Assembly (NCBI GenBank): GCA_947626175.1
Contig: CANQRE010000002.1
Span: 1 to 38,859, forward strand
Source of the DNA: an uncultured Clostridia bacterium
GTDB lineage: Bacteria > Bacillota > Clostridia > Christensenellales > UBA1242
Length of the DNA: 38,859 nucleotides
Reading direction: 5' to 3'
The translations under genes and the position numbers were made by a program. The notes beneath the pieces are model-generated. The model made no database searches. It had not been told where the DNA came from and saw only the letters and a program-made list of their open reading frames with translations. Below, one piece after another: positions 1,574 through 38,859 of this stretch. Position 1 is the stretch's first letter, and each line of letters starts with the position of its first letter.

Positions 1574-1574
1574 A

Positions 1575-2036: not shown

Positions 2037-2042
2037 TATTAT

Positions 2043-15516: not shown

Positions 15517-15547
15517 AAAAAAGCACCGATTTCGGTGCGTTTTTTTT
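15515..15547. terminator. bidirectional rho-independent terminator between convergent genes
   Basis: The sequence is AAAAAAAA-GCACCGA-TT-TCGGTGC-G-TTTTTTTT. Confidence 0.8.
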
Positions 15548-16664
15548 AATAAACTTTTTCTCGCCTGATTGAAACCACAATCACAACTGCCACAACAATG
15601 GCTGCTGCCAAAGCGGCTGCAACAACAATCCAAATAATGCTTTGTGTTGACAAGCCTTTAACTGTTGAAACTGAATCGCTGTCGGAAGTTATATAAACTG
15701 TTGTGCCATCGTCTTGGAAAATTGTGCAGGTCACTGTCCAAGTTCCTTCATAAGGTGGGTCAAAACGGAAGGTTGGGCCATTTCGATCAATTGATTCGGT
15801 TGAATAAATTGCGTTCAAATCTTCTTGATCTCCAATGTCGCCTTGTGAAAGCACAAAGTCACGCCCGTCTTTTGCTTTTCCTTTCACCGACCAACGAATT
15901 TGATATGCAGGAACATATTGATATGATTGGTCAACTGAAAAGATGTAAGCATTGTTAAGTCCTTGATCACTTGATGTTTTTTGAACTGAAATATCTGGCT
16001 TTGACAAAGTTGTCACATTTTTTGGAGTTATTTCAAACAGTTCGCTGTAAAAATTTGTGTTGCCAATTTTCAAGTTGAACATGTAAAGTCCCCAGCCTTC
16101 GGTGTATTTTTCGCCCAATATGTTTTTGGCATTAAAATTTAAACCAGATTGAACGGTGTTGTCCACAAAAAGCTGAACGGATGAAGGCACATCTTGAGCA
16201 CTTGAGCATTTTCCTGAACGGATTGTTTGTTCAGTCACAGCTTCATCGCTCCATAGCAAGTTTGCTTGTCCCGACGGCGAAACTCTGTTTGGTGCCCAAG
16301 AAACGGTGTAGGTGTAAGTTGTTTCTTCGTTGAAAATTGATTGGTCAATTTCGCTTGCATTAAATGAAACAACAAATTTCTTAAGTTCGCTCCATTCAAA
16401 TGATTTGCGAGGATAATTTTCTTTGTTGTTTTCCGCTTCGCCTGGCACGATAAGTGTTACAGGGTCTGAATTGGTTGCAGCCATTGCAGCCCCTTCGGCG
16501 TTGAAAGCTTCAACAGTCATAGAAGAGGATCTTTCAACATTTTGTAAAAGTATTTCAGCTTTTGCGGTGTTAACTGAAGGCATAGCCAGCCCAAGACCGC
16601 AGCCAAAGGTTGCCAAAAACGCCAAAGCCGAAATTCCACATAAAATTTTTGTTTGTTTTTTCAT
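15546..16664 (-). CDS. type-I membrane/surface protein of unknown function
   Basis: Start at ATG 16664 behind GGAGA. It has a signal peptide (MKKQTKILCGISALAFLATFGCGLGLAMP), a C-terminal TM segment (IIWIVVAAALAAAIVVAVVIVVSI) and a short basic tail. Confidence 0.7.
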   Translation of the reverse strand: MKKQTKILCGISALAFLATFGCGLGLAMPSVNTAKAEILLQNVERSSSMTVEAFNAEGAAMAATNSDPVTLIVPGEAENNKENYPRKSFEWSELKKFVVSFNASEIDQSIFNEETTYTYTVSWAPNRVSPSGQANLLWSDEAVTEQTIRSGKCSSAQDVPSSVQLFVDNTVQSGLNFNAKNILGEKYTEGWGLYMFNLKIGNTNFYSELFEITPKNVTTLSKPDISVQKTSSDQGLNNAYIFSVDQSYQYVPAYQIRWSVKGKAKDGRDFVLSQGDIGDQEDLNAIYSTESIDRNGPTFRFDPPYEGTWTVTCTIFQDDGTTVYITSDSDSVSTVKGLSTQSIIWIVVAAALAAAIVVAVVIVVSIRREKVY

Positions 16665-16753
16665 ATCATTTCTCCATACACGATTATAGTATATCATACT
16701 TTTTCGCGTTTACAAAAAGGTTTTTAACATTTTTTTAAAAAATAATAAATGGT

Positions 16754-25094: not shown

Positions 25095-25550
25095 ATGAAA
25101 AAAATCATGTTTTTATTTTTTGCTGCGGTGGCAGTTGTTGCAAGTCTTTCTTTTCCAAGGATAGATTTGTTTGAAATGCAAAATGTCAAGGCAATAAATG
25201 TTGTGGTTGATCAAAAAGTTGCAGTGGACAACAAACTTGATTTCATCGCAAACGGCAGTGATGCAATTGTGACTTTTGATGACAAGGAAAAAGCAAAAAG
25301 CTTTTGCAAAAACAATCAGCCAAAATGCGTTGTTTTTGTGCTGCCTAGCTTTGAAAGAAAAAATGTTGAAAACTTTTTAAACATTTCTTATGCTTTCACA
25401 CAAGAATTGGGACAAAAACAAATTGTTTATGGCTGGAGCAGCAAGGGAATGGATGAAAAAATTGTTGACTGCAAAAAAATAAATGTTCAACTTGTTGTTG
25501 ACGGCGAAAACATGCTTGTTGGCTTTCCAATGATTATGACAGGTTTTTAA
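25095..25550 (+). CDS. small secreted protein, possibly YwmB/DUF1779-like
   Basis: 151 aa with a signal peptide. The C-terminal NVQLVVDGENMLVGFPMIMTGF is reminiscent of YwmB-family ends. The family call is tentative. Confidence 0.5.
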   Translation: MKKIMFLFFAAVAVVASLSFPRIDLFEMQNVKAINVVVDQKVAVDNKLDFIANGSDAIVTFDDKEKAKSFCKNNQPKCVVFVLPSFERKNVENFLNISYAFTQELGQKQIVYGWSSKGMDEKIVDCKKINVQLVVDGENMLVGFPMIMTGF

Positions 25551-25605: not shown

Positions 25606-26184
25606 ATGGAAATCAAAAAGCAAAACAAATTCTTCACTTTTTTCAAAAGGTTTGGTGCTTACATCATTGCGGGGGTGGCGATTGTTGTGATCGTGATTGC
25701 AGCCACACTTGTGGGAGTTTTGTCAAACAGGAAAACCAATGACGATCACCCTGTTGACACAACGCCGCTTGTGTTTGGATTGCCAACGACAAATGCTTCG
25801 GTGATCAAGGATTTCAACAACACAAAGCTTCAATACAATGAAACGCTCAACAAATGGGAAGCACATTATTCAGTTGACCTGACAAGTGAAGACTCAACAG
25901 TTATGTCAGTTCTTGATGGAACAGTCACCGACGTGTTTTACAAATATATGTCTGGCTACATTGTGTCAATAAAACATGACGATGGATTTGTGAGCGTTTA
26001 CAGCTCGCTTGATGAAAATGTTGATGTGAAAAAAGGCGATGTTGTCAAAAAGGGACAAAAAATTGGATCAATGTCAACATCTGCTGCAGGTGAGGCATCT
26101 TATGGCAAACACGTTGACTTCAGCTTATATAAAGACGGCGAATCGGTTGATCCAAACAATTATATTTCTTTGCAAAACAAGTGA
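25606..26184 (+). CDS. membrane-anchored M23/LytM-domain protein, SpoIIQ-like
   Basis: 192 aa behind a GGAGG SD, with one N-terminal TM segment. The LytM core is HYSVD ... GTVTDV ... GYIVSIKHDDGFVSVYSSL ... KGQKIGSM ... HVDFSLYKDGESVDP. It lies immediately upstream of spoIIID, as spoIIQ does in Clostridia. Confidence 0.75.
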   Translation: MEIKKQNKFFTFFKRFGAYIIAGVAIVVIVIAATLVGVLSNRKTNDDHPVDTTPLVFGLPTTNASVIKDFNNTKLQYNETLNKWEAHYSVDLTSEDSTVMSVLDGTVTDVFYKYMSGYIVSIKHDDGFVSVYSSLDENVDVKKGDVVKKGQKIGSMSTSAAGEASYGKHVDFSLYKDGESVDPNNYISLQNK

Positions 26185-26240: not shown

Positions 26241-26465
26241 ATGAAAGAAAAAATCAAACAGCTTATCGCTGATCAGCTTTGCATCTCTCCTGATGACATA
26301 AATGATAATGCTGACATTGTCAATGACCTTGGGGCCGATTCACTTGATGTTGTTGAAATGCTTATGACACTTGAAGATGAATTTGGAATCAAAATCAAAG
26401 ATGACGAAGTCAACAAAATTCGTTCTGTCAATGAAATTTGCAAAATAATAGAAGCAAAAAAATAA
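26241..26465 (+). CDS. acpP: acyl carrier protein
   Basis: 74 aa from the ATG at 26241 behind GGAGG. The phosphopantetheine site is DLGADSLDVVEMLMTLEDEFG. Confidence 0.9.
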   Translation: MKEKIKQLIADQLCISPDDINDNADIVNDLGADSLDVVEMLMTLEDEFGIKIKDDEVNKIRSVNEICKIIEAKK

Positions 26466-26564: not shown

Positions 26565-26813
26565 GTGAATGAGGGCATAACAAGGCGTGTTTTGCTGGAA
26601 GCGGAATATATTTTAAGCACGAGAAGCACACTTAGGCAAACTGCACATTTGTTTGGCGTGAGCAAAAGCACTGTTCATGTTGACATGTCAGAAAGATTGA
26701 AAAAATTAAATGCAAAAAAATATCAAAAAATTGAAAAAATATTGCTTATAAATTTTTCTGAAAAGCACATAAGGGGCGGTCAAGCCACTCGAAAAAAATA
26801 TTTAACAGCATAA
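26565..26813 (+). CDS. spoIIID: sporulation transcriptional regulator SpoIIID
   Basis: 82 aa with a GTG start behind GGAGGGGGG. It is close to the Bacillus SpoIIID pattern (..A..FGVSKSTVH.D..ERL........I..IL......H.RGG.AT..KY). Confidence 0.9.
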   Translation: MNEGITRRVLLEAEYILSTRSTLRQTAHLFGVSKSTVHVDMSERLKKLNAKKYQKIEKILLINFSEKHIRGGQATRKKYLTA

Positions 26814-26918: not shown

Positions 26919-27623
26919 TTATTTCCACAAATTATAGCGTTTTGGGTGTGTCAGGGCATTGAAAATTTTTTCTTTTGCATTAGGATATATTTCATTCAAG
27001 GTTTTTAAAATATTTTTTGCTTTTTCCCGTTGCGAGAAATGGTCTTTTGGGCAAATGTTTTTTATCACTGGAAATTTTTTCGCCGCCACAATTATGTCAC
27101 TTTCTTCGCACAGCAGCATTGGCCTTATCACCGTTAAATTTGTCCTTGACAAATATGATTTTGGCTGAAGGACATAAAGCCGTCCTTCAAAAAACATTCC
27201 CATTAAAAATGTTTCAATCAAATCATCGCTGTGATGTGCAAGAGCAACTTTGTTGCAGCCCATTTGTTTTGCGGCAGAATTCAACAGTCCTCGGCGCATA
27301 TTTGCACACAGCGAGCATGGATTTTTTTCCTTTCTGATATCGAAAATAATTTCAAAAACATTTGATTTTTCAACTTTGAATTCCACTCCAATTTGATTGC
27401 AAAAATCCTCAATTTTTGAATAATCCATTTTTCCATTTGAAAGATCGATTGCAATGCCCACAAGTTCAAACTTTAAATTTGAAAACAATTGCAGTTGCCT
27501 TAAGGCAAACAAAAGGGTTAAACTGTCTTTTCCGCCAGAAACGCCAACGGCAATTTTGTCGCCATTTTCAATTAAATTTTGGTCGAAAATCAATTTTCGA
27601 ATTTGTGAAAGTATTTTTTTCAT
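26919..27623 (-). CDS. ttcA: PP-loop ATPase, tRNA 2-thiocytidine synthetase TtcA-like
   Basis: 234 aa from the ATG at 27623. It has the PP-loop VGVSGGKDSLTL, the Cys motif PCSLCANMRRG and a later NICPKDH. Confidence 0.8.
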   Translation of the reverse strand: MKKILSQIRKLIFDQNLIENGDKIAVGVSGGKDSLTLLFALRQLQLFSNLKFELVGIAIDLSNGKMDYSKIEDFCNQIGVEFKVEKSNVFEIIFDIRKEKNPCSLCANMRRGLLNSAAKQMGCNKVALAHHSDDLIETFLMGMFFEGRLYVLQPKSYLSRTNLTVIRPMLLCEESDIIVAAKKFPVIKNICPKDHFSQREKAKNILKTLNEIYPNAKEKIFNALTHPKRYNLWK

Positions 27624-27639
27624 AATTTTTTCGCTTTTT

Positions 27640-27668
27640 ATTTTAACAAAAAAAATATTTTTTTGCAA
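27640..27668 (-). promoter_or_regulatory. candidate promoter of ttcA (TTGCAA - 17 - TGtTAAAAT)
   Basis: On the minus strand the hexamers lie at 27668-27663 and 27645-27640. The ATG is 16 nt downstream with no SD. Confidence 0.45.
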
Positions 27669-27692: not shown

Positions 27693-27722
27693 TTGACAAT
27701 TTTTTCAAATTTGTTCTATAAT
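27693..27722 (+). promoter_or_regulatory. consensus sigma-A promoter (TTGACA - 18 - TATAAT) of the giant gene
   Basis: TTGACA lies at 27693-27698 and TATAAT at 27717-27722, about 80 nt upstream of the TTG start. Confidence 0.6.
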
Positions 27723-27808
27723 CTTATTGTCCAAAAATCTATAATTTTTGCAATAAAAAATTTTATAAATTTTTGTAATTTAAAAATAATAAATTGGGAG
27801 GAAAGTTT

Positions 27809-30800
27809 TTGAAAAGTAAAATTAGCAAAGTTTTCGTTGTTATATTTGGCGCTTTTCTACTTTTGGGTGGCCTTGTTTTTTCCGCATGTGGAAAAAAAGA
27901 AGTTCACGCCACAATTTCTGTTTCCTCTCAAAGTTTTGACGAAAATGGAGTGATCAATCTTGACATTGGCTCAGGAGAGGCAAAAGCGGAAATTTCCGCA
28001 AAGGTTGAAGGCACTTCAGGTGGCAGCATTTCTGTCAACAACGAAAATCAAACAATTGTTTTCACTGAAAGCACTTATGACAGCAAAACAAACGTCACAA
28101 CAATCAAAATCACAGCAAAAAGTGAAGGCGATGCAACGCTTATGCTTCGAGCTCATGGCAATGCGGAGCGAGAAATCAAAGTGTTTGTTTACAGCGATAT
28201 CACTGCCTTGGAGCAAAATCCAGATGCAACAAAGCAATATGTTGTTCGTGGCGAGCAAACACCACTTGATCCATCCAGATATTTGAAATTCACATCGCGC
28301 AAAAATGGCGAAAGCAATCGAAAGGATGTCACATGGTCGCTTCAAACTCAAAGCGAATTTGTCACGCTGGATGAATCAAACAGGCTTACAGTTTCGGAAG
28401 ATTATGACCAATCACAAGTTGTGCTTGTTGCTTCGTCAGTTTACACAAATCTCAGTGCCACAGTAACTTTGGATGTTGTCAAAGCTCTTCCAAAAGAAAT
28501 TGTCCCGGGTTATTTTGTTGGGGATGAGCAAACAGAAGGCCAAGCCTATATTCCAACTTCTGAAGAAGTGGAAAACGCAATAAGCCTTGAAGTTAACAAC
28601 AACAAAAGCCTGTATTTGGAAATCAATGTTGGAAGTGAATTTTTCCCACTTGTTGAGCTTCCAAAAGCAATCGTAAAAATTGACGGGAAGGAAGATTCTT
28701 CAATTTTTGAAATAACTCGCCGCAGCTATTCAGACAAACCAATTGACGTGCAAGATGCTTTCTTTTTCAAGCTAAAGCCAAAAAGTTCAAAAAAAGTTGG
28801 GCTTGTCGAGGTTTGCTTTGAAATCAAATATTCAAGTTACAATCTTTACAGCGTTCAAACAAAGTCGTTTTACATAAATCTTGAACAAATTGTAAATCAA
28901 ATTTCAGTTTCGTCAAATGGCGAAGACCTTGTCGATGGCGAAAAAATTAACATTTATGACCATTATACAACAGTAGGGCAAGCAAATGGAAGACCAATAT
29001 ATGTTGAGCTTGGCCCGGACACAATTCAAAATGACAAAGCAACTTTCAAAATCAAAGTTTCGCCTCAGATTAGCATGGCACTTGAAAAACTAAGCGATGC
29101 ACTTTCAATTGTTTGCATAAGCGATGGCGGACAAGCCAAGGAAATTGAGTTTGACAGGGAAGGCAGCTCGTTTGTGACAAAAAGCTCGCTAACCAACAAA
29201 ACAACAATTTTTGTAAAAGTCAATCAAGAAGCCGCTGAAACATATGACGGAAGTGAATTTAAAATTGAATTTATTGCTGATCAAAACAAAAACGTCAACA
29301 GCGGTTTGACTCTTGTTTGTGGCAGATCTCCTGGCACTGATTTTGTGGTTGAATCAGAGAATTTCAAACCTGAAACACGCGGCGAAAATCAAGTTTATGC
29401 TTATTATTTGCCAATAAACATTTCAAACAGCCAAACTTTCACATTCACAACAAGTGAAGAGCTTAATGGAATAAAAGGTTTTTATATTAAGCCTATTTCA
29501 TCAAATCAAAATTTGTTTAGCGTGAGCGGATTTAGCTTTAATCAAAACGACTTCAATTTCACAATTTCAACAACCTTAACGCAGCAAGAGCTTGCCACCG
29601 CACAAAACACAACATTTGAATTTCAAATTTGCCATGAAAATGGCTTTGTTGGAGTGATTGATCAAACCAACAGCTTTATTATTCAGCCGTTCATTTCAAT
29701 GGAAGATGCTTCTGTCAAGGTTGACAATCTTTTGTCAAGCGGCGTAATCAGGGAAGAAAACAATCAAAACAGCGAGGGAATGGCCGATACTCAGCAAAGC
29801 GGAACAGGAACACTTTCCAATTTGATCATGCAAACAGGCAGCACAGTTGTGCTAAACTTTTTCAGCAATGCCGGCATTGTGGATTTGTCAAACAATGGTG
29901 TTATATTTGTCAGCGGCGAAGGGCTTGATGAAAATCCAACTGCCGGAATGCTTATAGCTGCTTATCAAGGTCAGCAAGGTCAGCCTGACAATGTTGAGTT
30001 TTCGATTGATGGCCATCTTTCAATAAATTCCGACTTCAACGGTTATTGCCTTGTCACATTTAGTGGCTATGATCGAAGCCATGAAGACACGGTTATTTAC
30101 AGAATTTTCCATGTTGAAGCTTACACCGCTCCAACAAGGCTAACTGCTGACGAGCAGGGCGTAACTTTGCCTGCGCTTGACTCGATTTCAACAAGCGAAG
30201 CAAATCTTGCGCGAGCAACAATAAATGTAAGCTACAGGCCGGACAACAAGCCTGTAACTTATGCAAGCGGTGACGCAACGCAACCACAGGGACAAGTCAC
30301 AATTTATTCGCAAAATTATTATAATGATGTCAATGGTGTGCAGCCACAGCCTGGAAAAGATAATTTCAGCGGCTATAAATATATAAAATGTGAAAATATT
30401 ATTGTAACAAACAAATCTATTAGCTTTGACGTTGTTGCGCTCACAACCGATGGCTATGATATTTGGTCAGATCAAATTGTTGTAACCTATGAAGTTCACA
30501 ACAGAAAATATTACACCACAATTGATGTTTTGATTGAAAACGCACAGCGAGTTGAAAACATCCGATGGATCAATGAAACCGCAGACGGCGAAATTTATTT
30601 GGATTTGAACGGAATTGAAAACAGTGACAGGTCTGCAATGATCATAACATCTGTCACGCCGCTTTCTGCACGCAACACAAGTTTGTGTTACAAATTTGTT
30701 CCTGATTCCACCTCCAACAAGGGACTGCTTGATTCTCAAGCTCTTGAAAATGGAATTGTCACAATTGCCCCTTCTTTGACTGAAGGCGGAACAGGCTATG

Positions 30801-33800
30801 TATACATTTTCCCACAGGATGCAATCAAACTTTCATCTGGCTTTGAGCAAATCGTTTATTATGTTGACAACCGATATGGCCAACCTGAAGAAAGAAGTTT
30901 TTCAATTGACAATATTGGCGAAAACTTTGAACAAGCTTTAAATGGATATTTCTATAGGCGTGTTTCAGCAGATGAAATCACGAAAGTTTATTTTTCAAAC
31001 ATCTTAAAACGCATCAAAGTTGTTGTTGCAGATGGTGCAACCGAAGAGCGGGCAACAAGAATTTATGATGAAAACGAACTTAAAAACATTTCTATTTCAA
31101 ATCATTATGTTTTGATGAACAGCTTGACCTTAAACAATTGGCAATCAATTGGATTAGGGCAGGAATTTACAGGTTCTTTAAAGGGATATTCAAGCGACAT
31201 TTCGATCAATTTCGCTGGAGAATCAAATCCTTTGTTTGACACAATCGGCGAAGGTGGAAAAGTTGAAAACCTGAGTGTGAGCGGCTCTGTAAATGGCGGA
31301 GGCTTTGTTGCAAATCAAAACAAAGGTCTTATTCACTTGATAAAAGCAACTGTTAACATAACATCTGGGCAAAACACTCAAAGCGTGACAAAGAGCATAG
31401 TCACTGGAACTGAATATGCCGGCGCAATTGTTGGCATAAACAATGGACTGATTTCATCAGTTAGTGTTGAAGGTGTTGAAATCAGCGCAACTGATTATGC
31501 CGGCGCAGTTGCAGGCTTAAACAATGGCAGAATTGGAATATATAATTCTGAAAATGGCGGCTTTGGCGCAAAAGTTGAATTTTACATTTTCAAAGATGGC
31601 GAAAACACCGCCACCAACACAATAACAGCCGCCCATGTCGGCGGAATTGTTGGCAAAATTTCCTCTAACGGCGTGATTGAAAGCAGCTATGCTTACAATT
31701 ATTCTTCTTTCGATGTTTTGATTTCAGAAAACAAAGGCTCTTTTGCTGCTCAAGCAGAAGGTGAGCCAACCATAAAACAAAGCTTTGCTTGGAATTTGAC
31801 ACCGCAAAACGATTTGCCTGCAGTTGCATCTGGCGATGAAAATGTGATTTATGAAGATGTTTATTTCAATGCGGATGCAAATTCTGACGAAATCACCAAT
31901 CGCTCAAATTGGATTTATCCAGGCGAAATTGGCTACTATGGATATGTAAGAAAATCTGGAGAACAAAACCTTCCATATCTATCCAATTTGTATCAAGCTC
32001 AAACAGTGTCAAGTTTGGATGCAATCGCTGTTCAACAAAACGTGAAAGATGGCGATCATCAAAAAGTTTATGTAAACGGCGCAACAAACATTTTGTTCCT
32101 TCATGCCGTTGAACAAGTCAACTTGACCGGAGCTGAAACAAGTGCTCTTAACGCGCTTAACACAATCAGCCTTTCAGACTTGTTTGAAAGTGACGGAAAC
32201 AATTTGATTGCTTTGTCAAGTAGGTCTGATATTGCCGAAGTTCGTGGCAGCGCATTGATTGTCAAGCACACGGGCGAATTCAAGCTCACAATTTCAGCAA
32301 AACAGGATTACAGCAAATATAGAGAAATTGATTTTGTTGTTTTGAATGCTTTGGATTTGTTTGGCGTTGTTTTTGAAGGAGATGTGACAACTGGCTTCCA
32401 AATTCAAGCAAACAGATCGTCAGAAGTTGAATTTACCATTGAAAACACAATTTATCTTGCAAACAATCCAATTGCCTTTGTTTTGCAACAAACAAAGTTT
32501 GAAATTCAAACATCTGTTGAACAAACTGAAGGCCCTGACAAGTTAACATTCCAGCCAAATGGAATGCAAGCAACATTGTTTGCACAAATAGAGTCGCAAG
32601 ATGGCAAAGCAAAAAGCTTTAATGCAAGTGTGAACATAAAGCTTTCATCATATCCTGACGGCGATGTTTACGATGCAATCAAAAAATATTCGCAAAAAGA
32701 TCTTGTGATAAGTGCTTCCAAGGGAGCAAACGAAATTGGTGTAAGCAACGAAGAACTCACAATTGAGCCATCTTTTAATTCGCAGCTTTATGTTTGGCTT
32801 GACACCGATTATGAAAATGACGACATTGAACTGTCATTTGCCGAAAGAGAACTTTCAGTTGAAAGAGTTGTTTCTTCGAATGATGTTGTAACTTGGCATG
32901 TGAAACGAGGTGGCGACATAATAATGGAAATTGTTCAGTTAACAAAAGGAAATGAATCTGAGATTCATCCACGAACCTATGTTCTCACAATCAAAGTCAG
33001 TGAAAGCTATCGCTCACAAATTTCGGCAGATCAATCATTCCATTTGCAAATTTCATCAAAAAGCAAAACTGCAATAAATGAAAATCGACAAGTTGTCATC
33101 AATTTGTCAAGGCAAAACATCAACTACATTGACATGACAAATTACAAGCCAGGTGCAAATGTGCTTGATGGTAACACATTCTATTACACACGCATGGATA
33201 CACTTACATCTGGCATCTCGCCGGGAAGAACATCAATCATGAATGTGTTTGTTGATCCTGATTATGCTTATTACAAGTATATGACTCTCACTTATTCACG
33301 AAGCGGACAAACTCAAACAAACTTTGCTTTGGGAATCACAAGTCTTGAGTTTGACGGTGGCAAAACTTCATCAACGCGTTACACACAAAGCGCAACAACT
33401 TCAACTGCGCCAGTTCCAAATGGCATAAGGGTTGAACGCAAACAAAATGGCGCTTATGCTTTCTTGATTTATGCGGGAGCGAATATCAATCAAAATTCAA
33501 CATTTATTCTCACTGCGGCATTTTATGATGAAAACGGCATTGAAGTAAAACACAATTCATTCAATTTGTTTGTTGCTGCTTTGCCAATTGCCGAGCTTCA
33601 AGTCAACGGCAGTGATGAGGAAGTTGTTGTTGCAAAAGGCTCAAGTGCAAGGCTTAGCATAATGCTTGACAATGATCAACAAATTGAAAGCTTGGTCGCA
33701 AGCAGCATTGGCGGCTCGGGAGTTAAGGGAATTGAACTCACTCCTGAAAACGGCTGGGAAATCGTTGAAAACTATCAAGGCACCGGCAAAAAAATGATTT

Positions 33801-36800
33801 ATTTGACTGTGAAAGTCAACATTGATGCTGGCATTCAAGTTGAAGAAGAAGGGAAGATAAAATATGTCAACGGAATGTTCCAAATTGAAGCCACCGTTGC
33901 AAGGATTTATAATGGCGTGCGTGAAATACGAAGGTCTTATGCTTATATTGTGATTGCCGATTTTATGCCAGCTCCAGCAGTTCTTGAAAGGGCAGAATAT
34001 TCAGATTCGCTTGATGCCTATGTTTTTGAAGCTTACAACAACATAAATCTAAGCCTTGATTTTGAATATAATTTTGATCCACAAGATTATGCTTATGATC
34101 AAACAAACGATGAAGATCGAGAAGTTGTTGACAAGCTTATGAGCGCAAGAAACGATTTTGCAAAAAATTTGTTCTATTATAACGCAAATTCTGAATTTTC
34201 AATAAACTATAGGGATGGCCAACCTGTTCCGCTCACACAAAGAATTTATGATGCAAACAACAATCAGCTGCAGTTCAATTTGTCTTCAGACGGAAAAACT
34301 TATGTTTATGAAGGCTTTAACTTTAAACTCAATTATGTGATCGGCGAGGACAACGTGCCACAATTCAGTGTTATTGGCCTTCGCACAACTGCCAGCCCGG
34401 TTGTTTTGATTATGCGTGATTTAATCAACATTGCACAAGACGGAAGAGATGTGAACAGATATGTTGACACTCGATTTGCAATCAGAATCACCGATTTTTC
34501 AAGTGGCGATCGTCCACATATGATCACTTCGGCAGAAGAGTTTTTAAGTGTTGACAGTGAAGGCGAAGCTCATGACTACATTCTTATGAATGACATAACC
34601 CTTGTAAATTACACTCCAATAAGTGCAAGCAAGTTCCGCAGCCTTGATGGAAACGGACAAACAATTCACATTGAAAGCTTCAACACATCTGGCTCTGGCA
34701 ATTTGGATCTTGCTCTTTTCACAACAATTCCACAAGCAACGGTTATCAAAAACTTGAGAGTCAACCTTTACAATGGCGGAAACATTGTTGTCAACACAGC
34801 TCCAACAACTGGATATAGAAACATAAGGGTTGCTGCAATTGCACTTGACAACTATGGAATCATCACCAACACTCAAGTTGTTGCATATCAAAATCCAGAA
34901 GCGCTTCGCGTTAACACTGGTGAGCTTGGGCTTCAAGTCACTCTTCTTCGCGGCTCAAGTCAATATTACATTGCAGATGAGTCGGTCACAAGTGAAATTG
35001 CTGGCTTTGTTTTGAACAACCACTCTGAAGGATCAATCACAAATTCAACTGTCGGCGGACAGGAAATTGTTGTTATCGGCGAGCAACAAGGCTCAACCGA
35101 CAAGTTCTATTATTCCACCGAAAAACTTGGCCAGTTCACTCTTTATGGACAAGGCAACATGGCAGGCTTTGTTTTGAACAATGATGGCCAAATTGCATCA
35201 TCCGGCGCAGAACAAATTCAAATCACCAACGACACACATCTCAATTCATCTGAAACAGCAGGCTTTGTTGGCAGAAACACAGGAAAAGTTCGCATGAGCA
35301 TGGTTGCCGGCGTTCAAGAACAAATGGAAACAGGAAGTGAAAAATATTATCTCAGCGGCAGCAACATAAAATCGCAAGGCAAAATTGCTGGTTTTGTGAT
35401 CAACAACGGCGAGCAAGGTGAAATTTCAAATTGCTATTCAAACATAAGCTTGGTGGATTTGTCCAACAACCCAATCAAAGGAAGGACGGCTGCCGGATTT
35501 GTTTATGAAAACAAAAACCTTATTTCAACATCATATTCAGCATCGTTTGTTGAAAAATCGGATTTATTGAACTTGAACTTCTCAGGTGTTGATGAAAACG
35601 GAAACAGCTTGAACACCGGAAAAATTGAGTTGTCATATTATTACAATCCATCAACCGACACCAATGTTGATGACCTTGAAAAGGTGATAACAAATCTTGC
35701 AACTCCAATCATGCAAGATGAAGTTAAAAACAAATCGGCTTATTATGGCTTTATTTTCCAAACATCATCAACAAAACAAGACGGAATTTGGCGAATGGTT
35801 GATCCATCGCAAGATGGCTCTGCCATAGCGCTTGGCTTAAGGCTTGTAAGCAGAGATATTGTCACACTCAGCCATCGTTATTATGTTGGCAGAAGCGACA
35901 ACACATATGATCTTCCTTTTGCACAACTAACAAGTGTCTCCGCCGTTGGAAGGGGATATGACACAACTTATGGCTCAAGCGACAACCCAATTTTGATCAC
36001 TTCGGCAAAAGACTTCAAGGAAGCGGTTGGCGAATCTTCATCCACAAATGTGCGAAAATATTACACCAACACCGAAGTCAAAGGCTCATATCGATTTGTT
36101 TCAGATATTGACATGTCGGCTCTTAATGATGAGTTTGGCAATGCCACAATTTCATCAATTAGCAAAGCCTTCACCGGAACACTTGAAGGAAACGGCTTCC
36201 AAATCAAAAAACTTTCACTTGGCTCACAGGAAGGTGTTGGATCTGTTCCAAACGCAGCAGGCTTGTTTGGGCAAATCAAAGCCCCATCTTCAATTTCACA
36301 GCAAGATCAGGCACTTGTTCAAAATCTTGACATTGAAATCAACAACGTAACGTTTGGAAGGTCAAACATTGTTGGTTCGCTTGCCGGAATGGTGTCCGAT
36401 GCAATCATTTCAAACATAAATGTAACGCAAAACAGTGCATTGGAAAGCATTTCAAGCAGGAAGGGCGTTCAAGGTGGAAACTTGACCGGCGGAATTATCG
36501 GTGCAGTTTTTGGCGAAACAAAACTTAATGGCCTTTCAGCAAAAGATATTGTTGTTCAGTCATCATATTCTTCATCGTCAGAAGACAATGACAAGTATAT
36601 TTCGTTTGACCCACAACCTGTTCGTGAATCACAGGTAAATCAAAAGGGATTCTATGATGCTGGTCCAGGCGGTGTTGGCAGTCTGTCAGTTGCCGGCGGA
36701 ATTGTTGGCTATTATGATGGCTATTTGTCCATTGAACGCACAAGCAGCAGCTTTAACTATCAACAAGGCCTTCAAGCTGAAGCATTTGACACGCAGCGAC

Positions 36801-38859
36801 TTAACGTGAACGGGGTTATTGACATTCGCGGCGAAGTTGTTGGCGGAGTTATTGGCTTCACTGGCGTGAAAACAAAAGTAAAGGACGCTTCGCTTCAAAT
36901 TGAAAATGGCTCCAAAATTTTGTCATACAATGGCTTTGCCGGCGGAATTGTTGGCTTTGCAAACGGTCAATTTGAACAAATATATTCCGAATATGATGAA
37001 GAGTTGCAGGCCAATATTGAAGGAACTGGCACTTTAACAAACAACATTTACTCATATTATCAAGGCAATCTTTCAGCTGAACGCGGCGCACTTGACATTT
37101 TTGTGCTTGAAGCTGAAGATGAAGCGGGACAAGTGGCTGGCGAAACAGCTGTTCGTTACAAACCAAAATATATCGGCGGATTGTTTGGCGGCATAAAATC
37201 AGCTGCTGTGGCTGTTTCATACAGCAAAATCAATGTGATCAACGCTTATGAAGGCGGCTTTGCAGGCGGAATTGCCGGCGGAGTTTTCCCAAACAAAACA
37301 ACATTTATTGTGCAAGCAGATGAAAACTCAGCACGTGAGCAGTTCACAACATACCTTCATGAAGTTTACACTTCGTCAGACGTGTTTGTTGTTGACGGTG
37401 GAAATGATGAAGATTGTCTTGCAGCTGACGATTTGCGTTATGGCGGATTGTTTGGCAAAATTGATGCCACAAGCGGTGATTCAACAAACAAAATTGCTTT
37501 GTCGTCAGTGAACGCTGTCAACCATTACGGAATCAACAACAATCGTTATGGTGTTAATGACAAAATTTATGCCATTGCGGGAAGCGGTGTTCAAACAGAA
37601 GCTCAAGACATGACAAGGACAACGTATAACGAACATGGTGAAGAGTTAAAAGAAGTGGTAAGATTAGTCGAGCCAACAAATGTGGGAATCATTGTTTCGG
37701 CAGTTGCAAATCAGGACAATGCTTCTGCAACCGCAGATAACAAATCTGGAAAATCATTTGGCTTTATGGAAACCTACGTAAGCAGCAACGGCACAACTTT
37801 GACAGTTGTTCCATTCAATGGGATTGATACGCAAGGTAATATAGACAGTGACGATGGTTGGTATGACTATCTGGAGAAAGAGAAAGGTGATGATCTCACC
37901 ACCACTCAAAATCAAGCAAACTCTTACATGGAAGCTTATCAAAAAATTTATGATGACCTGTATTTCACAATCAAAGCGATTTCTGAATTTAACAATGTTC
38001 AAACAGCTTATTCTGAAACAAATGGAGCATTTATCAACTCAAGGGCATGGAATGCCCGTAATTGGAAGCATTTGACAAACACATTGTATCCACAAATCAA
38101 CTTTGCCCATTCTGAAAGTTACATGTATCTTGATGTATACAACAAGGCTGAAGTTTTGGCTGAAATGCAGGAAAATCCAAACCTTGAAATTCGTGTTCGT
38201 GGCCTTGAAAAACCAACCGACAGTGCTGGACAAATGACTTTTAAAAATATTGTATTGACAAAACAGGATTTAGCTGCCTTTCAGAATTTCAAAGGCACAA
38301 TACTTGGAGCAATTGACAGGTCTTGGGGATCCAACAAAATTGACACCCCAATTGGTGATAGGAGCATAACCGCTTACCCAGGGCTTGAAATTAGTGACTC
38401 AATGTTTTTAGGTGGCGGTGCCAATGAAGGCCTTGTTATAAGAAATTTAAACATATTCATGAAGCCTGCAAATGGAGAAGACCATATAAATTATCCTCTT
38501 TTCGCTGGCACAGCACAAAAAGTTTCACTTGAAAATGTTGATTTCTATATATATAATCAAGTTATGCTTTCCGGCGATGACAATAATGCCGGCATAATCG
38601 CTCCGAACGCAGATAGCGGTGAAACAGGGACAAGCACAAAGTTTGTTGACATTTCGCTTAATTTCTTTGCTAATATCACAGAGAGCAATCCTGCCGTTAT
38701 ACTTAAAGCCAACAATGCCGGACTTCTTGTTGGAACATTCACACAAAGCTCAAAATATTCATCTTTGCGTGTTCAAAACATTGTTGTTAGATATGATGAT
38801 TCGGGAAATGGAGATTTCTTGGAAGTTCAACCATCTTCTAGTGCGGAAGTTAACGTTGG
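27809..38859 (+). CDS. giant surface lipoprotein with multiple GLUG-like repeat modules (5' partial; no stop within the window, >3,683 aa)
   Basis: The frame was walked codon by codon from 27809 to 38859, including line junctions, with no stop. An in-frame TAA lies upstream at 27776-27778. The TTG start is 7 nt after GGGAGG. The signal peptide is MKSKISKVFVVIFGAFLLLGGLVFSAC. Repeated F.G.L.GNG..I entry motifs and GG(I/L)(V/F)G / AGFV strands are present. The ORF is absent from the supplied track because it is open-ended. Confidence 0.9.
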   Translation, partial: MKSKISKVFVVIFGAFLLLGGLVFSACGKKEVHATISVSSQSFDENGVINLDIGSGEAKAEISAKVEGTSGGSISVNNENQTIVFTESTYDSKTNVTTIKITAKSEGDATLMLRAHGNAEREIKVFVYSDITALEQNPDATKQYVVRGEQTPLDPSRYLKFTSRKNGESNRKDVTWSLQTQSEFVTLDESNRLTVSEDYDQSQVVLVASSVYTNLSATVTLDVVKALPKEIVPGYFVGDEQTEGQAYIPTSEEVENAISLEVNNNKSLYLEINVGSEFFPLVELPKAIVKIDGKEDSSIFEITRRSYSDKPIDVQDAFFFKLKPKSSKKVGLVEVCFEIKYSSYNLYSVQTKSFYINLEQIVNQISVSSNGEDLVDGEKINIYDHYTTVGQANGRPIYVELGPDTIQNDKATFKIKVSPQISMALEKLSDALSIVCISDGGQAKEIEFDREGSSFVTKSSLTNKTTIFVKVNQEAAETYDGSEFKIEFIADQNKNVNSGLTLVCGRSPGTDFVVESENFKPETRGENQVYAYYLPINISNSQTFTFTTSEELNGIKGFYIKPISSNQNLFSVSGFSFNQNDFNFTISTTLTQQELATAQNTTFEFQICHENGFVGVIDQTNSFIIQPFISMEDASVKVDNLLSSGVIREENNQNSEGMADTQQSGTGTLSNLIMQTGSTVVLNFFSNAGIVDLSNNGVIFVSGEGLDENPTAGMLIAAYQGQQGQPDNVEFSIDGHLSINSDFNGYCLVTFSGYDRSHEDTVIYRIFHVEAYTAPTRLTADEQGVTLPALDSISTSEANLARATINVSYRPDNKPVTYASGDATQPQGQVTIYSQNYYNDVNGVQPQPGKDNFSGYKYIKCENIIVTNKSISFDVVALTTDGYDIWSDQIVVTYEVHNRKYYTTIDVLIENAQRVENIRWINETADGEIYLDLNGIENSDRSAMIITSVTPLSARNTSLCYKFVPDSTSNKGLLDSQALENGIVTIAPSLTEGGTGYVYIFPQDAIKLSSGFEQIVYYVDNRYGQPEERSFSIDNIGENFEQALNGYFYRRVSADEITKVYFSNILKRIKVVVADGATEERATRIYDENELKNISISNHYVLMNSLTLNNWQSIGLGQEFTGSLKGYSSDISINFAGESNPLFDTIGEGGKVENLSVSGSVNGGGFVANQNKGLIHLIKATVNITSGQNTQSVTKSIVTGTEYAGAIVGINNGLISSVSVEGVEISATDYAGAVAGLNNGRIGIYNSENGGFGAKVEFYIFKDGENTATNTITAAHVGGIVGKISSNGVIESSYAYNYSSFDVLISENKGSFAAQAEGEPTIKQSFAWNLTPQNDLPAVASGDENVIYEDVYFNADANSDEITNRSNWIYPGEIGYYGYVRKSGEQNLPYLSNLYQAQTVSSLDAIAVQQNVKDGDHQKVYVNGATNILFLHAVEQVNLTGAETSALNALNTISLSDLFESDGNNLIALSSRSDIAEVRGSALIVKHTGEFKLTISAKQDYSKYREIDFVVLNALDLFGVVFEGDVTTGFQIQANRSSEVEFTIENTIYLANNPIAFVLQQTKFEIQTSVEQTEGPDKLTFQPNGMQATLFAQIESQDGKAKSFNASVNIKLSSYPDGDVYDAIKKYSQKDLVISASKGANEIGVSNEELTIEPSFNSQLYVWLDTDYENDDIELSFAERELSVERVVSSNDVVTWHVKRGGDIIMEIVQLTKGNESEIHPRTYVLTIKVSESYRSQISADQSFHLQISSKSKTAINENRQVVINLSRQNINYIDMTNYKPGANVLDGNTFYYTRMDTLTSGISPGRTSIMNVFVDPDYAYYKYMTLTYSRSGQTQTNFALGITSLEFDGGKTSSTRYTQSATTSTAPVPNGIRVERKQNGAYAFLIYAGANINQNSTFILTAAFYDENGIEVKHNSFNLFVAALPIAELQVNGSDEEVVVAKGSSARLSIMLDNDQQIESLVASSIGGSGVKGIELTPENGWEIVENYQGTGKKMIYLTVKVNIDAGIQVEEEGKIKYVNGMFQIEATVARIYNGVREIRRSYAYIVIADFMPAPAVLERAEYSDSLDAYVFEAYNNINLSLDFEYNFDPQDYAYDQTNDEDREVVDKLMSARNDFAKNLFYYNANSEFSINYRDGQPVPLTQRIYDANNNQLQFNLSSDGKTYVYEGFNFKLNYVIGEDNVPQFSVIGLRTTASPVVLIMRDLINIAQDGRDVNRYVDTRFAIRITDFSSGDRPHMITSAEEFLSVDSEGEAHDYILMNDITLVNYTPISASKFRSLDGNGQTIHIESFNTSGSGNLDLALFTTIPQATVIKNLRVNLYNGGNIVVNTAPTTGYRNIRVAAIALDNYGIITNTQVVAYQNPEALRVNTGELGLQVTLLRGSSQYYIADESVTSEIAGFVLNNHSEGSITNSTVGGQEIVVIGEQQGSTDKFYYSTEKLGQFTLYGQGNMAGFVLNNDGQIASSGAEQIQITNDTHLNSSETAGFVGRNTGKVRMSMVAGVQEQMETGSEKYYLSGSNIKSQGKIAGFVINNGEQGEISNCYSNISLVDLSNNPIKGRTAAGFVYENKNLISTSYSASFVEKSDLLNLNFSGVDENGNSLNTGKIELSYYYNPSTDTNVDDLEKVITNLATPIMQDEVKNKSAYYGFIFQTSSTKQDGIWRMVDPSQDGSAIALGLRLVSRDIVTLSHRYYVGRSDNTYDLPFAQLTSVSAVGRGYDTTYGSSDNPILITSAKDFKEAVGESSSTNVRKYYTNTEVKGSYRFVSDIDMSALNDEFGNATISSISKAFTGTLEGNGFQIKKLSLGSQEGVGSVPNAAGLFGQIKAPSSISQQDQALVQNLDIEINNVTFGRSNIVGSLAGMVSDAIISNINVTQNSALESISSRKGVQGGNLTGGIIGAVFGETKLNGLSAKDIVVQSSYSSSSEDNDKYISFDPQPVRESQVNQKGFYDAGPGGVGSLSVAGGIVGYYDGYLSIERTSSSFNYQQGLQAEAFDTQRLNVNGVIDIRGEVVGGVIGFTGVKTKVKDASLQIENGSKILSYNGFAGGIVGFANGQFEQIYSEYDEELQANIEGTGTLTNNIYSYYQGNLSAERGALDIFVLEAEDEAGQVAGETAVRYKPKYIGGLFGGIKSAAVAVSYSKINVINAYEGGFAGGIAGGVFPNKTTFIVQADENSAREQFTTYLHEVYTSSDVFVVDGGNDEDCLAADDLRYGGLFGKIDATSGDSTNKIALSSVNAVNHYGINNNRYGVNDKIYAIAGSGVQTEAQDMTRTTYNEHGEELKEVVRLVEPTNVGIIVSAVANQDNASATADNKSGKSFGFMETYVSSNGTTLTVVPFNGIDTQGNIDSDDGWYDYLEKEKGDDLTTTQNQANSYMEAYQKIYDDLYFTIKAISEFNNVQTAYSETNGAFINSRAWNARNWKHLTNTLYPQINFAHSESYMYLDVYNKAEVLAEMQENPNLEIRVRGLEKPTDSAGQMTFKNIVLTKQDLAAFQNFKGTILGAIDRSWGSNKIDTPIGDRSITAYPGLEISDSMFLGGGANEGLVIRNLNIFMKPANGEDHINYPLFAGTAQKVSLENVDFYIYNQVMLSGDDNNAGIIAPNADSGETGTSTKFVDISLNFFANITESNPAVILKANNAGLLVGTFTQSSKYSSLRVQNIVVRYDDSGNGDFLEVQPSSSAEVNV

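Follow-up and report, generated by a model that had tools for sequence, protein, structure and literature searches.

A giant lipoprotein gene held at one chromosomal position in uncultured gut Clostridia encodes a candidate wall-spanning surface fibre

Introduction

The window analysed here, a 38,859-nucleotide stretch of a contig from an uncultured Clostridia bacterium, ends inside an open frame of more than 11 kb that was missing from its list of open reading frames (ORFs). The initial annotation read this frame as one giant lipoprotein gene running off the window, and regarded it as an unusual feature of this genome. Is it part of a genuine single gene, and, if so, what kind of protein does the gene specify, and what might that protein do at the cell surface? 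We analysed the frame, its transcription and translation signals, its chromosomal surroundings, its relatives and the predicted folds of its product. The features are collected in Table 1.

Table 1. Features of the giant gene and its 5' region in the window
Feature	Coordinates	Strand	Basis
Sigma-70/sigma-A-type promoter: TTGACA (27693-27698), 18-nt spacer, TATAAT (27717-27722)	27693-27722	+	12/12 consensus match
AT-rich 5' leader of about 85 nt	27723-27808	+	Tandem repeats and Shine-Dalgarno sequence GGGAGG (27796-27801)
Giant lipoprotein gene, 5' part: 3,683 codons, about 58% of the gene	27809-38859	+	Stop-free frame up to the window end; collinear BLASTP alignment with relatives
Lipoprotein signal peptide, residues 1-27: TTG start, K-rich n-region, 17-residue hydrophobic core, lipobox F-S-A-C, Cys27 (27887-27889)	27809-27889	+	Lipobox rule
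About ten predicted tandem all-beta Ig-like (beta-sandwich) domains, residues 28 to about 1070; proposed wall-spanning stalk	27890-31018	+	AlphaFold2 and Foldseek
Beta-helix module 1, residues 1071 to about 1330, GLUG-like AGxIVG.NxGxI rungs	31019-31798	+	hhalign to module 2, cap HMM cross-matches, motif positions, sub-threshold GLUG and Peptidase_M26_N
Family-specific spacer region, residues 1331-2225	31799-34483	+	Collinear with relatives
Beta-helix module 2, residues 2226-2700, most conserved part of the protein	34484-35908	+	AlphaFold2, Foldseek, conservation profile
Beta-helix module 3, residues 2719 to about 3300	35963-37708	+	hhalign, cap HMM
Linker with family motif ETNGAFINS.AW..NW.H, then probable start of a fourth beta-helix, residues 3301-3683	37709-38859	+	Motif; cut by the window end

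Results

Open frame, start codon and 5' region

The frame with codon starts at positions equal to 2 mod 3 contains no TAA, TAG or TGA from 27809 to 38857, with two bases left over at the window end, and is closed on its upstream side by an in-frame TAA at 27776-27778. At a stop probability of 0.069 per codon, calculated from the base composition of the window, the chance of a stop-free run of this length is approximately 1e-114, in full support of the unlisted frame described initially. Exactly 24 closed ORFs (60 aa or longer counted) overlap this frame, each of 130 aa or fewer and either antisense or in a different frame; the initial annotation had taken them for shadows of this gene. The relative synonymous codon usage of the giant frame correlated with that of 15 neighbouring genes at r 0.93, compared with 0.49-0.55 for the two other frames, and the codon-position GC stayed even throughout the gene. 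No DNA repeat within the gene is longer than the one of 46 nt, and there is thus no sign of a collapsed repeat.

Two in-frame start candidates were present, TTG at 27809 and TTG at 27794. The former follows the Shine-Dalgarno sequence by 7 nt and lines up with the relatives' start codons (ATG or TTG) and their GGAGG. Several close relatives likewise begin with TTG, and the start assigned initially was thereby supported. The candidate at 27794 was rejected, since it lies inside the Shine-Dalgarno sequence and out of line with the starts of the relatives.

The promoter, described from the outset as a textbook element, is kept in sequence and position among the relatives: of 25 related loci, most have TTGACA-N17/18-TATAAT approximately 83-86 nt 5' of the start codon. 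The leader contains two to three tandem copies of a repeat of about 25 nt each (27733-27795). Its length, a AAAATAATAAA box and the GGAGG are kept across the leaders of the relatives, while the remainder varies. The leader matched no Rfam family and its interior is poorly conserved, and a riboswitch was discarded as a candidate on both grounds.

Relatives and full length of the gene

An exhaustive protein search identified 176 relatives, of which 139 had E<1e-30; giant proteins make up almost the whole set. Nearly all are lipoproteins of 5,200-7,137 aa, collinear with the window protein from residue 1. The closest relatives, of 6,076-6,372 aa, share 35-38% identity with the window protein in a single BLASTP HSP, which pairs query residues 1-3683 with their first 3,560 residues or so, and they extend for another 2,530-2,810 aa past the end of the window part. 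From this alignment, the full gene probably has a length of 6,200-6,500 codons by extrapolation, or roughly 6,300. The window thus contains the promoter, the leader and the N-terminal part, approximately 58%, of one gene about 19 kb long.

As delimited here, full-length members of the family have 5,200-7,100 aa and a Gly-rich C-terminal motif, KAGDGGNG...GNDGWGGLNL, and the family comprises at least 140 clusters at 50% identity. A cluster look-up of the relatives gave no family name in any source. Pfam and NCBIfam searches of the whole window protein, of its 400-aa pieces and of the C-terminal half of the relative P0001 gave only chance-level or sub-threshold matches, and sequence and profile searches of the window part against the PDB gave nothing even at E<=10. 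A word-index protein search with residues 3101-3683 and 2226-2700 also returned nothing; given the 176 relatives found by the exhaustive search, these word-index negatives carry no weight. The related loci were retrieved with a six-sequence alignment, a single-protein search of genome and metagenome contigs having found none. Because the global family alignment stretched the truncated C-terminus of the window protein out of place, the conservation profile was used only up to about residue 3350. Judged by these comparisons, the window protein is a member of an unnamed new family of giant lipoproteins of uncultured gut Clostridia.

Chromosomal neighbourhood

The giant gene is flanked upstream by spoIIID and a divergent ttcA, and in the relatives it is followed downstream by radC and then uvrBA. 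The divergent ttcA was detected upstream in at least 22 related loci. Five species have the same order, namely, LPG_synthase_TM, a 177-aa gene, a 150-aa gene, M23 peptidase, ACP, SpoIIID, ttcA (on the minus strand), the giant gene, radC, uvrB and uvrA. This order holds even where the identity of the giant protein falls to 29%; between species, TtcA is 60-70% identical, compared with 29-38% for the giant protein. All relatives examined are uncultured gut Clostridia, and each has the giant gene at the same place in the chromosome. The initial view of an unusual feature of this one genome therefore gives way to that of a gene conserved at a fixed position throughout a lineage.

Lipoprotein signal and anchoring

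The N-terminus, MKSKISKVFVVIFGAFLLLGGLVFSAC, carries a lipobox under the PROSITE PS51257-type rule, with its Cys at position 27, and the core of the signal peptide is the sole hydrophobic segment of the window protein. A lipobox was present at 34 of the 37 related genome loci and in almost all full-length relatives, so that the lipoprotein-type signal peptide recognized initially proves to be common to nearly the whole family. A second lipobox protein (…LFAGC) is encoded in the window at 21320-23146, suggesting that the lipoprotein pathway is in use. By motif scan, HExxH was found neither in the window protein nor in seven full-length relatives, and a metalloprotease was rejected on this ground; likewise, no LPXTG (LP.TG) was found, and a sortase-anchored protein was rejected. 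Among the anchoring signals sought, the lipobox is the sole recognizable one.

Ig-like array

The region following Cys27 was modelled by AlphaFold2 (residues 27-1075, 12-sequence alignment), which gave strands throughout, with a mean pLDDT of 77 and a pTM of 0.41. Foldseek detected 398 matches to this model in the PDB at E<=1e-3, and the best 50 were all multi-domain beta-sandwich proteins, mostly Ig-like strings. The matches include NUP210, protocadherins, contactins, Sap and EA1 of B. anthracis, and SbsC S-layer proteins. By sequence, the region had no Pfam match, and no Big family was detected at E<=5 in any piece of the protein. The Big_2 domains guessed initially accordingly went undetected by sequence, although structure prediction does give an array of Ig-like domains. 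The models suggest that residues 28 to about 1070 form tandem beta-sandwich domains of approximately 100 residues.

Beta-helix modules and spacers

Module 2 was modelled by AlphaFold2 with a pLDDT of 85.8 and a pTM of 0.89, and showed short strands throughout in a regular beta-solenoid pattern. Its Foldseek matches in the PDB were weak, and almost all were right-handed parallel beta-helix proteins. The best by both probability and TM-score was IgA1 protease (6xja_P, probability 1.00, TMq 0.38), and a search of the viral structure library returned a 'putative IgA1 protease' (E 1.8e-4). With TM-scores of 0.38 or below, module 2 is without a close structural relative. At the level of the fold, these results bear out the pectate-lyase-like beta-helix guessed from the sequence. 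Two other guesses fared less well. GLUG (PF07581), for which the cut-off is 20.5 bits, is present only as sub-threshold matches: three of the 400-aa pieces scored 13.0-14.5 bits at best, and the whole protein gave no match; DUF6273 belongs to a different window protein (8129-11119), and is below the Pfam cut-off there too. Peptidase_M26_N (PF05342) reached 13.1 bits against a cut-off of 27.7.

The hhalign probability was 94-96.5% between modules 1 and 2, 88-96% between modules 3 and 2, and 92% between modules 3 and 1. The cap HMM placed beta-helices at about 1070, 2230 and 2720 in the window protein and likewise in P0001, P0003 and P0014. BLASTP of the window protein against itself detected no repeats, and the modules were seen by profile methods only. 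The spacer region between modules 1 and 2 matched no Pfam or NCBIfam family, and its sole internal similarity was between residues 1464-1519 and the end of the first Ig-like domain (probability 32%). The motif of the linker after module 3 was found in the window protein and in all eight relatives listed; further on, the cap HMM matched weakly at residues 3547-3587 (iE 0.077), and a fourth module probably begins before the window end. Thus, the window protein has at least three mutually homologous right-handed beta-helix modules with family-specific spacers between them.

Distal end of the relatives

The data on the distal end come from the relatives, as the window ends at residue 3,683, before that end is reached. 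Among strains of one species, the membrane-proximal half, corresponding to the window part, was 98-99% identical, compared with only 77-90% for residues 3,600-5,000. In relatives that are otherwise 98-99% identical, the tail was wholly different directly after the conserved GNDGWGGLNL motif, and the breakpoint of the recombinant P0152 was located at the same motif. In two of the five related species, an exchangeable end covers approximately 250-300 residues, consisting of a repeat-encoded stretch and a variable tail of 130-190 aa.

The same two species have a silent alternative C-terminal cassette in inverted orientation, with inverted repeats on either side, and their strains, although nearly identical, carry different tips. 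Inverted repeats and a silent in-frame inverted cassette were present at L038, L039 and L040, with both states found among strains; the silent cassette was absent from the three other species (L041, L042 and L043). No recombinase family was detected among the genes within 8-10 kb of the relatives' loci or among the window proteins scanned against Pfam or NCBIfam; a recombinase may be encoded elsewhere. At L038, L039 and L040, we infer tip switching by DNA inversion from differences between strains rather than within one sample. Taken together, the constant membrane-proximal half, the divergence over residues 3,600-5,000 and the exchangeable last 250-300 residues or so suggest a stalk that stays constant and a tip that varies under selection.

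Discussion

From its architecture, we consider it likely that the window gene is the 5' part of a gene for a giant lipid-anchored, wall-spanning surface fibre or adhesin. In the proposed mechanism, Sec would export the precursor, Lgt and Lsp would lipidate Cys27, and the lipidated protein would stay in the outer leaflet of the cytoplasmic membrane. From there, the Ig-like array would reach through the cell wall as a stalk, and the beta-helix modules and spacers would make up a long fibre, whose distal half may contact the outside (host or other cells, glycans or phages) as an adhesin or contact fibre.

One alternative is that the frame is no genuine single gene and reflects a chimeric assembly, repeat collapse or the decay of a pseudogene. 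In its favour, the ORF is interrupted by the contig end, and an exact look-up of three neighbouring window proteins in public collections gave no record, leaving no second copy for comparison. Against it stand full-length single ORFs, collinear end to end, in more than 100 independent assemblies, as well as the lack of long DNA repeats, the native codon signal, uniform along the gene, and the vanishing chance of such an open frame; this explanation is next to impossible, and is effectively already refuted, and the single giant lipoprotein gene proposed initially stands. If the gene is genuine, its product might instead be a structural component of the envelope, that is, a lipid-anchored spacer, sheath or S-layer-like coat needed by every cell of the lineage. 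The fixed syntenic position in every relative examined, a strictness across the lineage that is unusual for an adhesin and might indicate a structural role, agrees with this idea, as do the perfect and conserved housekeeping-type promoter and the match of the Ig-like array to Sap, which gave the top TM-scores, with EA1 and SbsC also matched. However, cadherins, contactins and NUP210 were matched equally well, so the S-layer match reflects Ig-like strings in general; the identity between species is low beside that of TtcA, and no SLH or other wall-binding domain was found by Pfam or NCBIfam. The hypervariability between strains and the tip switching also suit an interaction surface better than a lattice, and we regard a purely structural role as unlikely.

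Rather less probable still is that the protein tethers a series of carbohydrate-active enzymes to the membrane, with the beta-helix modules acting as polysaccharide lyases or glycoside hydrolases on host or dietary glycans at the cell surface. Such enzymes also use the beta-helix fold, and the Foldseek matches of module 2 with the lowest E-values were PL6 chondroitinase B, fucoidan lyase FdlA, pectate and pectin lyases, GH110 and GH28-type enzymes and phage tailspike depolymerases. These matches were weak (E>=1.3e-3, TM 0.15-0.30), though, whereas the best by probability and TM-score was the non-catalytic N-terminal domain of IgA1 protease, and the non-enzymatic adhesins PfbA and L. reuteri SRRP scored similarly. 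No CAZy-type Pfam family was detected even at E=1, and the majority of the invariant residues of module 2 are Gly, Asn, Phe or aliphatic residues of the repeated AGFV..N.G.I rung, a pattern that looks structural rather than catalytic. The replacement of the tail right after GNDGWGGLNL in 98-99% identical relatives, the P0152 breakpoint at this motif and the alternative cassettes stored downstream would also be compatible with a contact-dependent polymorphic toxin, of which the variable C-terminal domain is the delivered effector. Yet no immunity-like gene follows either cassette, radC being next, and the stored cassettes are inverted, startless and flanked by inverted repeats, which is the layout of tail fibres and shufflons and not that of orphan toxin-immunity modules. 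Moreover, five variable tails contained no toxin family at E<=1 and are rich in Tyr, Asn and Gly. A toxin is accordingly very improbable, and the lipid-anchored fibre or adhesin remains the preferred reading.

With respect to known proteins, the best structural match of module 2 is the N-terminal GLUG-type beta-helix of the M26 IgA1 proteases (IgA1P/ZmpA of S. pneumoniae, 6xja and 7jgj; G. haemolysans, 7uvk), with which the window protein shares the repeated aGG/aGF-hydrophobic-G-x-N-x-G-x-I rung motif. Unlike these proteases, it has no HExxH domain and no LPXTG, its Pfam scores are sub-threshold, and it has several modules, an N-terminal lipid anchor and three to five times the size.

The giant Gram-positive adhesins, namely, Ebh, Embp, the serine-rich repeat proteins, PfbA and Giant1-5, are largely tandem-repetitive, LPXTG- or C-terminally anchored and patchy in distribution. 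In contrast, the window protein has no detectable sequence repeats beyond its diverged modules, an N-terminal lipid and a fixed position across the lineage. It resembles these adhesins (serine-rich repeat proteins, PMC6973325; Giant1-5 of Apilactobacillus kunkeei, PMC12863079) in its thousands of residues, its predicted extracellular location, its Ig-like and beta-solenoid parts and its presumed role in adhesion or cell contact, and the beta-solenoids of PfbA and L. reuteri SRRP are among the fold matches.

As regards the relatives' distal end, L038, L039 and L040 resemble known invertible C-terminal cassettes, in which one 5' body is joined by inversion to startless alternative cassettes. In one such system, Vsa of Mycoplasma pulmonis, the constant part bears a lipoprotein signal, as does the constant part of the giant gene. 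Other systems of this kind are the tail fibres of phages Mu (G segment) and P1 (C segment), the R64 shufflon and the intragenic invertons of the gut (PMC10028968). The relatives differ from all of these in a constant part of about 6,000 aa, in having only two cassettes, arranged tail to tail, and in the absence of a recombinase gene within 8-10 kb.

Giant proteins of 10,000-85,000 aa, with many transmembrane regions or with recognizable repeat domains such as RCC1, dockerin and Listeria-Bacteroides repeats, have been described in Omnitrophota and gut Clostridia (West-Roberts et al., bioRxiv 10.1101/2023.11.21.568195). Those proteins are likewise known from metagenomes, are confined to a limited phylogenetic range and contain long beta-helix regions, and their structures had to be predicted in segments. 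The present family differs in its size of about 6,300 aa, its one lipid anchor and the lack of any recognized domain.

Giant surface proteins are usually viewed as repetitive, fast-changing accessories. The present gene contrasts with this view, with some 19 kb of coding sequence under a consensus promoter at a fixed position in every relative examined. The analysis provides a first domain map of the family, comprising a lipid anchor, a predicted Ig-like stalk and beta-helix modules of the IgA1-protease type, and offers a testable idea of how uncultured gut Clostridia contact their surroundings. With their invertible C-terminal cassette, the relatives would provide one of the largest known cases of a protein recoded by DNA inversion, and inversion calling from long reads of gut metagenomes has in this cassette a concrete target. 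More tentatively, and with the balance of probability against it, the family could constitute a lineage-defining surface organelle, a single-lipid fibre exceeding 6,000 residues, in which the stalk through the wall is constant and the distal tip is reprogrammed by intragenic inversion, with the same switch at the 3' end of the window gene. If so, one conserved giant gene would let a lineage of gut Clostridia switch its ligand, host or phage specificity, as a cellular counterpart of the phage tail fibre with its G segment.

A single open frame of more than 11 kb

From its start at TTG 27809, the frame ran for 3,683 codons without a stop, as far as the final complete codon of the window (38857); the closest in-frame stop upstream was TAA 27776-27778. 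Based on the composition of the window, a stop is expected approximately every 14 codons, and the probability of an open run of this length is approximately 1e-114. The gene is overlapped by 24 closed ORFs of 60 aa or more, none of which exceeded 130 aa; all lay in other frames or on the opposite strand, in agreement with their earlier reading as shadows of the gene. The synonymous codon usage of the frame correlated with that of 15 neighbouring genes at 0.93, compared with 0.49-0.55 for the two shifted frames; GC content at each of the three codon positions was even along the 11 kb; and the longest DNA repeats (20-46 nt) merely encoded a recurrent AGGIVG-type peptide motif. The native codon usage, the even GC content and the presence of short repeats only gave no sign of repeat collapse or foreign origin, and the chance that the frame is an artefact rather than a real single gene is negligible. 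Both the observation and the interpretation of the initial annotation, namely, one giant lipoprotein gene leaving the window, hold, and we are nearly certain of its identity as a giant lipoprotein gene of an unnamed family.

Features of the giant gene and its product, the upstream genes and the 3' ends of related loci (L038, L039 and L040, on the contigs of relatives P0001, P0151 and P0003, respectively)
Feature	Position	Strand	Basis or remark
SpoIIT-like protein gene	25095-25550	+	similarity and position relative to Pfam-labelled gene in a relative's locus, where the SpoIIT match is weak
M23 (SpoIIQ-like) peptidase gene	25606-26184	+	similarity and position, as above
Acyl-carrier-like protein gene	26241-26465	+	similarity and position, as above
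SpoIIID gene	26565-26813	+	similarity and position, as above
ttcA ORF as listed	26919-27668	-	start TTG 27668; alignment of most homologues begins only at residue 16 (MKKILSQ...)
Promoter TTGACA-18-TATAAT	27693-27722	+	12/12 positions match
Lipoprotein signal peptide	residues 1-27		only hydrophobic segment
About ten Ig-like beta-sandwich domains	residues 28 to ~1070		structure model and structural matches
Beta-helix module 1	residues 1071 to ~1330		profile-profile comparison, cap HMMs
Family-specific spacer	residues 1331-2225		no Pfam/NCBIfam match; a further Ig-like domain faintly hinted at
Beta-helix module 2	residues 2226-2700		model, structural matches; most conserved
Beta-helix module 3	residues 2719 to ~3300		profile-profile comparison, cap HMMs
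Linker motif followed by the probable start of module 4	residues 3301-3683		motif and weak cap HMM match
3' end and stored cassette	L039:24231-25907		relative, outside window
3' end and stored cassette	L038:28268-29438		relative, outside window
3' end and stored cassette	L040:26261-27007		relative, outside window

Promoter, leader and start codon

The promoter proposed for the gene recurred in its relatives: in most of 25 loci, TTGACA, a spacer of 17-18 nt and TATAAT preceded the start codon by approximately 83-86 nt. GGGAGG lies 7 nt ahead of TTG 27809, GGAGG and the start codon align across related loci, and TTG is also used by several close relatives. Taken together, these alignments support a sigma-A-type promoter, the proposed start at TTG 27809 and a leader of approximately 85 nt. 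The divergent ttcA probably starts at ATG 27623, in which case the two genes would share a promoter region of 185 nt. The interior of the leader was not conserved among relatives and matched no Rfam family. Downstream of the -10 box and ahead of the Shine-Dalgarno sequence (27733-27795), it contains two or three copies of an AT-rich unit of approximately 25 nt with the core TATAA(A)TTTTTG(C/T)AAT. These repeats, not clearly conserved in relatives, could be a regulator binding site or mere AT-rich drift.

Relatives and full length

A word-indexed search with 8,000 candidates gave no match for two segments of the protein, while an exhaustive HMMER search with an overlapping segment (residues 2226-3425) detected 176 proteins (E<1e-30 for 139), indicating that negatives of word-indexed searches are unreliable for such proteins. 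Almost all of these relatives were 5,200-7,137 aa, the query falling on their residues ~2,150-3,300. In BLASTP, the closest relatives each aligned as one collinear segment (query 1-3683 against subject 1-~3,560, 35-38% identity) and extended 2,530-2,810 residues further; the most likely length of the window gene is therefore 6,200-6,500 codons (approximately 19 kb), with 58% inside the window.

The whole protein gave nothing meaningful in Pfam, and 400-aa pieces gave only sub-threshold GLUG (13-14.5 bits against a cut-off of 20.5) and Peptidase_M26_N (13.1 against 27.7). GLUG, one of the families that the initial annotation proposed to search for, thus appeared, but below the cut-off. NCBIfam matches were at chance level, PDB sequences gave none even with the family profile at E<=10, and neither cluster nor database annotation named any relative. 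The carrier genomes were all metagenome bins from animal and human gut samples, assigned to uncultured Clostridia or Firmicutes with one exception titled Eggerthellaceae. The giant protein represents a new family, as yet unnamed, within a known kind of protein.

Domain organization of the giant protein

The N-terminus MKSKISKVFVVIFGAFLLLGGLVFSAC conforms to the lipobox rule with Cys27, in agreement with the predicted lipoprotein-type signal peptide, and a similar signal with Cys at position 23-27 opens nearly all full-length members. Neither LPXTG nor HExxH was found in the protein. A model of residues 27-1075 based on a 12-sequence family alignment (mean pLDDT 77, pTM 0.41) showed a chain of approximately ten all-beta domains of about 100 residues each, of which the single domains are confident and their mutual arrangement is not. 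Among its 398 significant structural matches, the best 50 were multi-domain beta-sandwich proteins, mostly Ig-like strings, including NUP210, protocadherins, contactins and the S-layer proteins Sap, EA1 and SbsC.

The model of module 2 (16 sequences; pLDDT 85.8, pTM 0.89) consisted of short strands throughout in a regular beta-solenoid pattern. Its matches to PDB structures were weak (best E 1.3e-3, TM <=0.38), and almost all were right-handed parallel beta-helices; the top match by both probability and TM-score was the non-catalytic N-terminal domain of pneumococcal IgA1 protease, and a phage 'putative IgA1 protease' was among the top matches in viral structures. These matches agree with the sub-threshold Pfam hints, and the earlier suggestion of a pectate-lyase-like beta-helix was borne out at the level of fold only. 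In profile-profile comparison, residues 1071-1295, 2225-2576 and 2719-3138 were homologous (probability 88-96.5%). The cap HMMs, profiles of the module caps, recovered the same three positions in the relatives P0001, P0003 and P0014, with weaker sub-threshold matches near 4440 (P0001, P0003), at ~4605-4704 (P0014) and at ~5650 (P0003). A weak cap match (iE 0.077) points to the probable start of a fourth module close to the window end. Within the family, conservation is highest in the modules.

Elsewhere in the window, a 996-aa protein (8129-11119, +) has an N-terminal hydrophobic segment, likely membrane-spanning, and a sub-threshold DUF6273 at residues 554-709. Its C-terminal module shares the GLUG/Peptidase_M26_N type with the giant protein (E 8.8e-5; iE ~1e-4 with the cap HMMs), and the 996-aa protein may be a small relative of the module.

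Genomic setting

The window neighbours of the giant gene are housekeeping and sporulation-lineage genes, including cysS, recD2, mfd, a MurJ/SpoVB-like flippase gene and ttcA. As in the window, at least 22 related loci had a divergent ttcA ahead of the giant gene, and the small genes preceding it were likewise conserved. Five species shared the order LPG_synthase_TM, 177-aa gene, 150-aa gene, M23 peptidase, ACP, SpoIIID, ttcA(-), giant gene, radC, 120-aa gene (-), uvrB and uvrA. This order persisted even at 29% identity of the giant protein, whereas TtcA identity in the same comparisons was 60-70%, indicating that, among the relatives examined, the giant gene evolves faster than housekeeping genes yet is fixed in place. 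The ACP-like, SpoIIID, SpoIIT-like and M23 (SpoIIQ-like) genes upstream indicate an organism from a spore-forming lineage.

A second lipoprotein of 608 aa with its own lipobox (...LMLGVSLFAGC) is encoded at 21320-23146 (+), adjoining mfd in all related loci; it matched no NCBIfam family, and the corresponding genes of relatives have no Pfam match on record. A 383-aa ORF (15546-16697, -), with an N-terminal signal-like segment and a C-terminal hydrophobic segment that is likely membrane-spanning, matched no Pfam or NCBIfam family.

A putatively switchable tip in some relatives

Three proteins of one species, P0001, P0151 and P0152, shared 98-99% identity in their first ~3,400 residues but only 77-90% at residues 3,600-5,000, and their last 150-190 residues were wholly different. 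The proximal half, which lies in the window, is thus the constant scaffold, and diversifying pressure acts on the distal half. Homology between P0001 and P0151 stopped exactly at the conserved motif GNDGWGGLNL, at which P0152, a recombinant, has its breakpoint. Directly after the stop codon on the P0151 contig (L039), an open, start-less cassette lay on the opposite strand, recorded in the database as a separate 222-aa gene; it opened with the same ...ISSQNVDSANIYNHGIVKAGDGGNGRRGADG... sequence, closed with the P0001-type C-terminus ...LSAVCRGPEIEIIQ, and the segment was flanked by inverted repeats of 147 nt (97% identity). Conversely, the P0001 contig (L038) stored an inverted, shortened P0151-type tail bordered by a perfect inverted repeat of 32 nt. 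A second species (P0003, L040) was organized likewise, its repeat being 127 nt long and its stored tail a different one; three other species lacked a stored cassette.

Inversion between the repeats would join the silent stored cassette in frame to the giant gene. Together with this layout, the expression of different C-terminal cassettes by near-identical strains suggests that the tip is switched by DNA inversion in some relatives. No recombinase was found among the nearby genes of these loci. For the window's own gene, such a switch is possible but rather doubtful. Vsa lipoproteins of Mycoplasma pulmonis follow the same inversion logic, as do the phage Mu G segment and shufflons. Intragenic invertons in gut bacteria also share it (PMC10028968).

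Proposed function and comparison with known systems

The giant gene has a conserved strong promoter, and its product carries a lipobox as the sole recognizable anchor among the signals sought, an Ig-like array adjoining this anchor, and then beta-helix modules and spacers. On the basis of what is generally known about Gram-positive lipoproteins and fibrillar adhesins, the precursor would be exported by Sec, its signal cut by Lsp and Cys27 acylated by Lgt, holding the protein in the outer membrane leaflet; the Ig-like array would form a stalk crossing the wall, and the rest a long projecting fibre. The variable distal half would fit a surface meeting ligands, immune factors or phages, and an adhesin or contact fibre is the reading that we somewhat favour. 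A structural envelope layer, a role with which the S-layer proteins among the structural matches may be compared, is unlikely. A tethered array of glycan-degrading enzymes, in which the beta-helix modules would be catalytic, is less likely still; most of the invariant module residues belong to the rung motif and are Gly, Asn, Phe or aliphatic. The least probable of these alternatives is a polymorphic toxin, and the variable tails matched no known family.

The modules would work like the GLUG-type beta-helix of M26 IgA1 proteases, which they resemble weakly. The protein failed each test that defines that family (Pfam thresholds, HExxH, LPXTG). In kind, it can be grouped with other very large surface proteins of Gram-positive bacteria, among them Ebh, Embp, SRRPs, PfbA and the A. 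kunkeei Giants (PMC12863079, PMC6973325). Four features set it apart from these: its N-terminal lipid anchor, the lack of tandem repetition, its invisibility to Pfam, and a chromosomal position that is fixed in all relatives examined. Nor does it resemble the Omnitrophota and Oscillospiraceae giants of 10,000-85,000 aa (West-Roberts et al., bioRxiv 10.1101/2023.11.21.568195). What is notable in this family is a giant gene held in place across its lineage and, in some members, a tip that appears to be switched by inversion.
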